NCBI GenBank assembly: GCA_963812155.1
Contig: CAWETW010000003.1
Location: 576,001-640,000, forward strand
Direction of reading: 5' to 3'
Length of the DNA: 64,000 bases
Source of the DNA: Vulcanimicrobiota bacterium
Lineage (GTDB): Bacteria; Vulcanimicrobiota; Vulcanimicrobiia; Vulcanimicrobiales; Vulcanimicrobiaceae
The notes beneath the pieces are model-generated. The model did no database searches, was not told the origin of the DNA, and saw nothing but the letters and a program-made list of their open reading frames with translations. Numbering within the stretch: position 1 is the stretch's first letter; every line of letters starts with the position of its first letter. The position numbers and the translations under genes were made by a program. This document shows positions 47,185 to 49,654 of this stretch, piece by piece.

Positions 47185-47945
47185 ACGATCTCGCCGAGGC
47201 GACGTCCGACCAAGCATGCCGCGTGCGGCTCGACGTCTTCGACGGACCGCTCGATCTTCTGCTCAGCCTGATCAAAGAACGCCAGCTCGACGTCGCCACC
47301 GTGCCGCTGGCCATCGTGGCCGAGCAGTACCTTGCGTACGTGCGCGCGATGCAGGAACTCGATGTCGAAGTCGCAGCCGAGTATTTGGTGATTGCGGCAA
47401 CGCTCGTGTTTCTGAAATCGCGCGCGCTTCTGCCGCCGATTCCGCAAGAGTTCGCCGGCGACGAGGCCGAGACGCCCGAAGAAGTCGAGGAGCGGTTGCG
47501 CCGGCGCCTGATCGCATACTCGAAGTATCGAGAGTTGGGGGAGCGCTTGCGCGCGTTCGCTCTCGAAGCGTCGGGCTATTTTTATCGCGAGGCGGGCGAT
47601 CCGGCTAGCCAGGTCGTTCAGCGCTACCATATCGATCCGGAGAAACTCAAGCACGCGTTCGTTTCGATGCTCGCGCAGGCGCGGCCCGAGAAGCGCTCGA
47701 TCGTGCGGGAGCGCGTTTCGCTGATCGCGTCCATGGATTACATCGTACGCCGGCTGAAGGAGGCCGGTGAGGTGACGTTTTCGGCGCTCTGTCACGAACT
47801 GGGGATGACGCGCGAAGTCGTGATCGTGACGTTCCTCGCGCTGCTGGAGCTGGTACGCCGCCATCGCGTCGCGTTGGAACAGCCGGAACTCTTCGACGAC
47901 ATTCGCATTCTGCCGATGGTGCGTCAACAGGCCGCCGGCGCGTGA
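47181..47945 (+). CDS. scpA: Segregation/condensation protein A
   Basis: FDGPLDLLL, AATLVFLKSRALLP, FLALLEL. Confidence 0.95.
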   Translation: MNDLAEATSDQACRVRLDVFDGPLDLLLSLIKERQLDVATVPLAIVAEQYLAYVRAMQELDVEVAAEYLVIAATLVFLKSRALLPPIPQEFAGDEAETPEEVEERLRRRLIAYSKYRELGERLRAFALEASGYFYREAGDPASQVVQRYHIDPEKLKHAFVSMLAQARPEKRSIVRERVSLIASMDYIVRRLKEAGEVTFSALCHELGMTREVVIVTFLALLELVRRHRVALEQPELFDDIRILPMVRQQAAGA

Positions 47946-48559
47946 GCGAAGACGCCATCGCCGAAAACGAAGCCGCAGCCGCCGCGGTGGAGGAGGCGGT
48001 GCTGCGATTGACGCGTCCGATCGAAGCGCTGCTCTTCGTTGCGGGCGAGCCGCTTTCGATCAAGCAGATGGCGAAATTAACGCGCGCGAGCGAGGTAGAA
48101 GTCGCCGCGACGCTGGCCCGCGTGACCGCCGACTACGCCGAGCGCGGCATCGTCGTGCGAGAGGCGGGCGGCGGGTACCGCTTCGCGACGTCGCCGCTCG
48201 CGCGCGATGCCGTAGAAGCCTACGTGCTGCCGCCGAAAACCACGCTCTCGATGCCCGCGCTGGAAGCCCTTGCGATCGTCGCGCACATGCAGCCGGTCAC
48301 CAAGAGCGAAATCGAAGCGGTTCGCGGCGTGAACTCGGATAGCGTCGTCAGCACGCTGCTCGACCGCGGGCTGATCGGCGAAGCCGGCCGCAAAGACGTG
48401 GTCGGACGGCCGATGCAATATCGGACGACGCCGTTCTTTCTGGAGTCGTTCGGTCTGCGGTCGCTCGACGATCTTCCCGAGGTCGAACTGGAAGCGGGGC
48501 AGCCGCTCGAACTCACGCTGCTGGGAACCTCTGAAGAAGTCCATGCACCGATCGTTTGA
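47942..48559 (+). CDS. scpB: Segregation/condensation protein B
   Basis: IEALLF, ALEALAIVA..QPVT, IRGV-like VRGV, GRP..Y.TT..FL..FGL. Confidence 0.95.
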   Translation: MSEDAIAENEAAAAAVEEAVLRLTRPIEALLFVAGEPLSIKQMAKLTRASEVEVAATLARVTADYAERGIVVREAGGGYRFATSPLARDAVEAYVLPPKTTLSMPALEALAIVAHMQPVTKSEIEAVRGVNSDSVVSTLLDRGLIGEAGRKDVVGRPMQYRTTPFFLESFGLRSLDDLPEVELEAGQPLELTLLGTSEEVHAPIV

Positions 48560-48800
48560 GCCGCAAAGGCGGTACATGCTAGAAGACGGCGAGGGAGCAT
48601 ACCCAGGGTGGTCTGTGACCGAGCCGGCGACGAAGCAGATGCTGCCTTTGCGGTCAAACCCTTTGGGCAACGGCATTTTCGGCTTATCTCGTTGTTGCAG
48701 CCTCGGTCACAGACTCCACGAGTATGCTTCCTCGGCTGCGCCTAGAGTTACGCCGAAAATGCTCGTTGCGATCGGTACAGCGACTTCTTCAGAGTTTCCC
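48523..48800. repeat. 278-nt long imperfect palindrome (structured RNA or MITE-like element)
   Basis: 19-bp terminal inverted repeats (18/19 match) and nested internal complementary blocks; detailed in findings. Confidence 0.75.
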
Positions 48801-48810
48801 TAAAACGATG

Positions 48811-49654
48811 ATGCGAATCGGGCTGCACGTGCGCGTCGGCGGCGGCTACGGGAAAGCGGTCGCGCACGCGAAGGCAACCGGCTGCAACGCGCTGCAAGTG
48901 TTTTCCAGCAATCCTCGCAGTTACCGTCCGAGTGCGATCGACGGCACGGCACTCGATGCGTTCGCGGAGATGCGGCGCGACGCGGGTATCGATCCGTGCG
49001 CCATCCACACGCCCTATCTCATCAACCTGGCCAGCGACGATCCGAAGATCTATGCCGGGTCGTTGCGTTTGCTGCGCGGCGATTTGGCCGCGGCGGCGCG
49101 CGGCGGAATGCAATTGGTGAACACGCACTTGGGTTCGTACGGAACGCGCGAGCGAGACGAAGGGTTCGTGGCGATTTGCCGCGCGCTCGAAGAGGCGCTT
49201 GCGGACGTAGCGCCCGGCGTTTTTTTAGTGTTGGAGAATTTCGGCGGGTGCGGGCAATCTCGCCGGCGGAACGCTCGAGGAGCTCGGAGCGTTCGTCAAC
49301 GCCGTCGATCATCCGCAGCTCGGCGTCTGCTTGGACACCGCGCACGCGTGGGCGGCGGGCTACGAAATCAACTCGGCGGCGGGCGTCGATCGATTCCTCG
49401 AGTCGGCCGACCGGCATATCGGCGTCGACCGTCTGCTGATGTTTCATTTCAACGACACGGAGGTGCCGCTGGGCGGAAGCCGCGACCGTCACTGGCACAT
49501 CGGTGAAGGAAACGTCGGGTTCGAAGGCTTTCGCGCGCTGCTGTCGCGTCCGGAACTGCACGGAAAAACCGCGATTCTCGAGACGCCCGGCGACGACGCC
49601 GACGATCTGCGCAACATGCAGACGATTCGCGCGATCGCAGCCGGCGCGCGCTAA
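48811..49654 (+). CDS. nfo: Endonuclease IV, frameshifted near 49240
   Basis: IGLH, HTPYLINLAS, H.GS, LEN(S)AG, CLDTAH, HFND, DRHWHIG, ILETP. Confidence 0.92.

Follow-up and report, generated by a model that had tools for sequence, protein, structure and literature searches.

Closest described systems

In the REP/REPIN and RAYT system, high-copy imperfect hairpins with conserved mismatches occupy intergenic sites on the chromosome as singlets and as inverted doublets, the REP unit itself measuring 20-40 bp. The bcr1 repeat of the Bacillus cereus group is presented, in the available part of Delihas 2011 (PMC3184786), as a mobile non-coding repeat of ~155 bp with 5-bp direct repeats, cruciform-like, made of two independent stem-loops with compensatory changes, and located at unconserved genomic positions. 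On that account, MITEs with a covarying cruciform are known already. In Geobacter metallireducens, Gmet_R1001-R1024 are listed as 'predicted short RNA elements' (Aklujkar 2009, PMC2700814), and the accessible sections of this article give them as ~113-bp single arms devoid of IS5 ends, taken as regulatory RNAs. Lastly, the MRSC-65-2 motif, as outlined in the part available of Narunsky 2024 (PMC11109978), possesses a long covarying stem, occurs in many copies per genome among diverse phyla, and possibly acts as DNA. The literature covered, with subscription papers and some supplements outside its scope, returned no account of the 278-bp family reported here, of its twin-arm build or of its cross-phylum core, and the portions available of PMC2996986, PMC11602168 and PMC10969869 hold nothing on the 278-bp family.

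A 278-bp element between scpB and nfo

The window is a 64,000-nt stretch of a Vulcanimicrobiota genome (G000), in which the genes scpA, scpB, and nfo flank a non-coding element of 278 bp that cannot accommodate a transposase-sized ORF. By the sequence of its ends, it is assigned to the MITEs with IS5-group termini. The features of the locus are as follows:

47942..48559, + strand: scpB (NCBIfam ScpB match)
48521-22: CT left flank, versus TA on the right
48523..48800, + strand: whole predicted MITE, 278 bp, with IS5-group ends and an inverted pair of hairpin arms
48523..48541, + strand: left TIR, 19 bp, 18/19 identical to the left end of the intact IS5 element L434
48544..48554, + strand: 5' side of the sub-terminal stem, covarying, partner 48769-48779
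48555..48658, + strand: left arm, with a covarying stem, a tandem G-A mismatch, purine-rich internal loops and an apical hairpin
48590..48623, + strand: conserved core motif of the left arm (B blocks of the first-pass annotation), conserved in sequence, unpaired with B'
48656..48668, + strand: central linker mini-hairpin, retained in 10/10 one-arm derivatives
48667..48769, - strand: right arm, the left-arm unit inverted, whose model retrieves Gmet_R1-like Geothermobacter repeats
48702..48734, - strand: conserved core motif of the right arm (B' blocks of the same annotation)
48782..48800, - strand: right TIR, 19 bp
48801..48802, + strand: TA right flank
48808..49654, + strand: nfo (endonuclease IV)

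The first-pass annotation had proposed that this segment pairs end to end as a rod crossed by two further helices, and all the blocks that it named, together with both crossing helices, are present where it placed them. The terminal 19-mers are indeed complementary at 18/19 positions, 48611-23 pairs with 48702-14 at 13/13 and 48590-602 with 48722-34 at 12/13, while the CGATCGGT block, for which no position had been given, corresponds to residues 48769-76. The suggestion that several mismatches are G-U compatible does not hold for the terminal one, which is a C-T. The element does overlap the 3' end of scpB, to which it supplies 11 codons and the stop rather than ~12 codons, and it terminates just upstream of nfo as had been said, 7 nt before the ATG at 48808. 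The ScpB C-terminus following LELTLL is now element-derived and reads GTSEEVHAPIV, versus EQ in the related genome G001 and ER in G007; the insertion swaps the final two residues of the protein for eleven. In both of these genomes scpB and nfo overlap at TGATG, a stop/start overlap that the insertion abolishes. As a separate observation, nfo contains one extra base at 49239-41 as compared with G001, resulting in a frameshift after codon ~144, either an assembly error or the sign of a pseudogene.

The GC content of the element is 57%, versus ~64% for the genome. Its net insertion at scpB-nfo amounts to 279 bp relative to G001 and G007, which is a 1-bp surplus, and the TA duplication is imperfect at this site since the left flank, 48521-22, is CT. 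The MITE would have inserted at or beside a TA in the scpB stop region. About 13 nt of the central linker (48655-48668) resemble the IS1182 elements of G105 at their right end (L379/L380), a likeness that may be due to chance.

Copies, empty sites, and decay

The element is a real and mobile insertion that exists in multiple copies. Each of the 14 congeners examined, G007 included, has an empty scpB-nfo site, and the element is present there in 0/27 relatives with an scpB match (one of these rows, L016, stems from the unpublished genome G033), 19 of which have an scpB-nfo spacing of at most 14 nt. At unrelated loci, a DNA search returns the element in 67/401 genomes of the phylum, G000 counted: 64/296 in the family, 2/5 in a sister family and 0/99 elsewhere. 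G105 harbors at least 9 full copies, the window genome a single one, and insertion positions differ between species. A scan for TIR pairs, run on fetched loci, some copies of which it missed, yields 67 distinct elements, 57 of them long and 10 of 170-198 bp, with the exact length of 278 bp in 35/67. All 10 short forms retain the linker and a single arm, the left one in 7 of them and the right one in 3. A ~12-bp scar of both element ends lies at G000 C5:62860, where G001 has a full copy, and unpaired TIR matches in G105, G127, and G001 are remnants. Copies decay by loss of one arm, giving the 170-198-bp forms, or of nearly everything, leaving short scars.

TA flanks the element on the left in 27/67 cases, on the right in 43/67 and on both sides in 17/67. 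The best-aligned empty sites in G000 display a 2-bp surplus (L005, L069, L108) or a 1-bp surplus (L064, L072). Together with an IS5 element that shares the end, these empty sites, the multi-copy spread and the apparent 2-bp duplications bear out one of the two readings first proposed for this segment, that of a non-autonomous mobile element with 19-bp TIRs.

IS5-group ends

The element sharing the end, L434, is an intact IS5 of 1156 bp bounded by CTA and TAG, with an end identical to the element TIR at 18/19 positions and a 316-residue transposase matching NF033581 (IS5) at 312 bits for a cut-off of 140. Three IS5 elements from the same bacterial family (L172, L162, L155) have ends 14-16/19 identical to those of the element, and variant MITE ends resemble other IS5 subgroups, as in L066, whose outer 13 bases match L171. 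Of 301 genomes of the family searched for DUF772, 45 are positive, and several of the positives are IS5-family (NF033581) with CTA/TAG flanks. A DUF772 transposase is present in 0/5 genomes tested, namely G000, G001, G007, G014, and G127 (completeness 84-96%), four of which are multi-copy carriers, and no enrichment of DUF772 appears among carriers, 8/45 positives carrying the element by hand count versus a background of 64/296, two samples that overlap but differ. The DUF772 gene scanned in G105 belongs to the IS1182 family, and both DUF772 elements of this genome have unlike ends. Among the IS5 elements and metagenome end loci tested, no autonomous element has a matching sub-terminal or interior sequence. 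A near-exact TIR (L177), considered as the end of the adjoining broken IS5, looks instead like a separate short remnant.

Searching metagenomes for the TIR end yields 48 loci. Sequence of an IS5 transposase is present in 3 of them, and 34 are short elements delimited by the end and filled with various palindromes, so that the capture of palindromic repeats seems to be a general property of IS5 ends. Within this set (L432-L479), the same IS5 end is found around many different REP-like hairpins and around a 9-bp minisatellite array.

An IS5-family DDE transposase acting in trans would recognise the 19-bp ends and duplicate 2 bp, and the movement may have taken place in past bursts. The two TIRs of a copy differ on average by 0.96 bases, versus 4.3/19 between copies, and the ends of five autonomous elements differ from each other by 2-4 bases. 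Since double-strand transposition needs no paired stems, we infer that selection for a single-stranded fold, copying of one side of a stem onto the other, or both, probably maintain the perfection of the stems.

A branched fold rather than a rod

Folded as RNA, the element reaches -152 kcal/mol (z -11.1; 0/200 shuffles as good), and its minus strand folds too, with z -10.4 against shuffles. The minimum-energy fold is branched and comprises a 30-bp terminal stem, the left arm, the small linker hairpin, and the right arm. The pairing blocks on which the end-to-end rod was built are genuine, and the rod does not stand as the main form. In the window copy the rod lies 3.0 kcal/mol above the branched fold as RNA and 7.2 kcal/mol as DNA, and across 56 copies its median cost relative to the best fold is 12.8 kcal/mol.

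The covariation alignment contains these 56 copies, namely 54 of the 57 long elements plus L042, L070, and L149, minus L128 that has an insert; the three long elements left out harbor inserts of 8-54 bp. Double-sided changes affect 54/67 pairs of the branched helices (terminal stem 23/29, left stem 14/18, right stem 17/20), as against 1/12 and 1/12 pairs, 2/24 together, of the two loop-loop helices. The whole branched structure scores better than 500/500 shuffles and every slid control. Counted on a tree, double changes amount to 64 for helix T, 48 for A, and 40 for C, versus 1 each for B1 and B2, and the terminal stem acquires two or more double changes together on 14/42 branches. The inner helices within each arm likewise covary. 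It is a Y-shaped or cruciform structure that is conserved.

These data bear on the other reading initially advanced, a bistable or double-pseudoknot ncRNA switching between rod and branched forms. The small gap between both folds in the window copy and the B/B' helices, which remain 93% paired among the 56 copies, are what speaks for it. Such a switch requires covariation in both alternative helix sets, and it is absent from the loop-loop set: B/B' are conserved without covarying, with 2 double changes versus 110 other changes on the tree. The one-arm derivatives (10/67) do not even possess the partner loop. Since the branched helices covary, the loop-loop helices do not and the rod is costly across copies, the bistable RNA is rejected, and we give it almost no credence. 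Neither the element region, where the best match (E 6.3) falls outside the element, nor any of 15 related loci comes near gathering score in Rfam.

Twin arms with opposite strand preference

The covariance model R2, for which 30 right arms were taken in minus-strand orientation, scores plus-strand left arms at 43-68 bits (E 1e-6 to 1e-12), that of the window copy at 56.6 bits. These matches show both arms to be a single hairpin unit, present in two opposite orientations. Complementarity of the loops follows from this arrangement, the conserved motifs of an inverted unit being necessarily complementary, and the rod or kissing fold is a by-product of one conserved motif that is present twice in opposite directions.

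The two arms also differ in the strand on which they fold. The left arm folds better on the plus strand in 55/56 copies and the right arm on the minus strand in 51/56, and the left inner helices count 77 G-T versus 4 A-C pairs. This bias is present in the arms and absent from the terminal stem (18 G-U versus 19 A-C). As the non-canonical loops of each arm form on one strand only, the dimer offers one well-folded arm on either strand. The folding asymmetry is observed directly; display of a working arm on either strand would be its purpose.

Taken as a whole, the reading that we hold to be probable is that of an IS5-ended MITE, mobilised in trans, with an inverted twin-hairpin cargo. This cargo consists of two copies, inverted relative to each other, of a structured hairpin unit from a chromosomal repeat superfamily.

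The arm unit in other phyla

The left arm is homologous to cross-phylum one-arm repeats of the CAGATG type. A motif scan of named genomes locates the core in at least 126 loci, the matches listed belonging to NC10, Desulfobacterota, Nitrospirota, Bacillota, Planctomycetota, Myxococcota, and other bins. These listed matches are mostly single hairpins of 100-135 bp with IS5-like or other, unrelated terminal stems, and in 34/121 of them (within L183-L306) a second TIR lies outside the first, 44-47 nt upstream of the core, so that the 3' TIR of such one-arm elements has two possible partners. Tandem arrays of the core also occur, at G441 C11:149118-149550 (period 161-162 bp) and at L222, L273, and L280.

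R1, a model of the one-arm family based on 54 sequences, scores 10/10 held-out loci at 91-111 bits and, in each of five genomes, reports at least 76-148 matches, with 150 candidates scored. It matches the left arm in 24/43 copies of the 278-bp family at 13-35 bits, leaves the window copy unmatched at E up to 1 and never matches right arms. The R1 matches are partly circular, because the pattern that supplied its anchors had itself been modelled in part on L030, and R2 serves as the independent test. R2 matches 14/38 one-arm loci, weakly (best E 0.005) and all on the expected strand and at the expected place. It also retrieves 13 Geothermobacter repeats devoid of IS5 ends with the same type of central palindrome (E 1e-4 to 5e-3). 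Look-alike repeats in G441, where the arm unit is present without IS5 ends, score 33-41 bits with R2, and in G443-G445 the model finds nothing. On the evidence of such matches, the arm unit is shown to belong to a widespread, multi-phylum repeat superfamily.

Within G000, one R2 match belongs to a family of 23 copies, ~104 bp long, that has IS5-type ends and a related core, and that lies mostly between convergent genes (14/23). The ends of this sister family resemble the IS5-like L163, at sites such as C2:285805, C3:676869, and C3:1057247. Palindromic repeats of the GTCATCCTGAGC type are clustered in the same genome at C3:433925-434447, C3:575688, C1:651838, and others. Two paired arrangements, considered as candidates for an autonomous element with arms on either side of a gene, were discarded: in G000, two sister repeats bracket ORFs of ordinary metabolism, and in G445 an inverted pair with 1.2-kb spacing encloses an RNase D-like ORF, as judged by eye.

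A further R2 match is an arm-like unit on the sense strand of the 23S rRNA gene (G000 C1:245583-245674 (-), L391/L402; also L403-L408), at what we take to be the helix 54 region. It is common to G001, G007, G011, G014, G019, and G023, and is a hairpin located within a variable expansion of the 23S rRNA, with stem covariation across 7 genomes. At the same 23S place, G029 (L411) has a different type of palindromic repeat.

The breadth of this distribution is a point in favor of another explanation, in which the arms are the working part, a REP/REPIN-like single-strand unit for a putative chromosomal enzyme (an HUH-type nuclease, another nuclease or a reverse transcriptase), the two-arm form is a REPIN-like doublet and the IS5 ends are an add-on. 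It would account for a core found in many phyla and at high copy number, for several unrelated terminal stems around it or none, and for its strand specificity: in the one-arm family, G-T pairs outnumber A-C pairs 139 to 45 in the outer stem and 87 to 17 at the apex, and the purine-rich strand is the more stable in 112/119, with copies that are kin and p-values overstated for this reason. High-copy genomes possess 0-1 DUF772 gene each, and collections of plasmids, phages, and viral contigs, in which these taxa are thinly sampled, return no match. Against it, the Y1_Tnp gene is found in 0/5 genomes of the carrier family, 0/30 Y1_Tnp loci from high-copy genomes lie beside the core, no mobility gene recurs among the 150/236 flank frames scanned, and the 278-bp form is sharply delimited by IS5-type ends and TA flanks. 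We consider this explanation unlikely.

A further, tentative idea is that of an undescribed cross-phylum REP-like family, reaching hundreds of copies in a genome, whose arm would be a single-strand recognition unit for a putative enzyme or host factor that reads the tandem G-A and the purine-rich loops. Terminal stems would be swapped, the ends of several IS5 subgroups being taken up and the unit even being taken into 23S rRNA, and the 278-bp element would be an inverted doublet, built so that either strand shows a working arm.

Gene orientation and expression

Another alternative to the IS5-ended MITE is a host-selected mRNA element that is transcribed with the operon and retained because it serves RNA processing, stabilisation or termination, its mobility being a side aspect. 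Its plus strand is sense to the upstream gene in 47/66 called flanks (codon-model calls), and it often restores or supplies the stop codon of that gene, in 15/47 cases at the TA and first base and in 10 at a TGA within the TIR. The covarying arm-like unit on the 23S sense strand in 7 genomes also agrees with a function in RNA. In one leaf-litter RNA run, two contigs of 151 nt at depth 2 span 48505-48799; they represent a single fragment, possibly DNA, and the fact that the run leaves scpB and nfo uncovered has no evidential weight. However, insertions are not conserved across species, the well-folding strand of one-arm copies is antisense to the neighboring gene in 33/43 loci with Pfam-confirmed flanks (hand count; 150/236 frames scanned), the terminal stem does not favor G-U over A-C, and a scan of the element for promoter-like and terminator-like sites found none. 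We regard an mRNA element as highly improbable.

Comparison with known systems

A MITE between two genes is ordinary, and it is the cargo that raises the interest, with a fold that covaries across phyla on one strand only, in an element whose transposase would presumably act on double-stranded ends. The reason for which folds persist in bacterial MITEs and REP-like repeats is directly testable here, since Desulfobacterota, NC10, and Nitrospirota genomes contain many members of the family and some of their hosts are cultured. One-arm, two-arm, end-bearing, and end-less versions provide built-in natural controls.

With the IS5 group (NF033581) and its MITEs, the element shares 19-bp ends identical to L434 at 18/19 positions, a YTAR-type target, an apparent TA duplication of ~2 bp and its non-coding nature. 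It differs from the IS5 elements tested by the lack of a shared interior and by ends more alike than those of autonomous elements, and most tested carriers are devoid of such a transposase. Like REP/REPIN, the family has imperfect hairpins, strand-specific mismatches, singlets, and inverted doublets; unlike them, its units measure ~95-125 bp, many have IS5 ends, and no linked RAYT was found. MRSC-65-2 is defined, in the part of PMC11109978 available, by a UYCCGG repeat that is absent from the element consensus, and the core may be among the 250 mobile or repeat candidates of that study. The layout of Gmet_R1001-24 agrees with the Geothermobacter R2 matches by eye only, from the alignment published in PMC2700814; with rows compared in this way, one branch of the core appears to have been listed already in 2009 as the Geobacter Gmet_R1 elements. 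The likeness to bcr1 is one of description (PMC3184786, as far as available): unlike those of bcr1, the arms of the element are inverted homologues with opposite strand preference. What is new is that loop complementarity is explained by inverted twin arms, each favoring its own strand.
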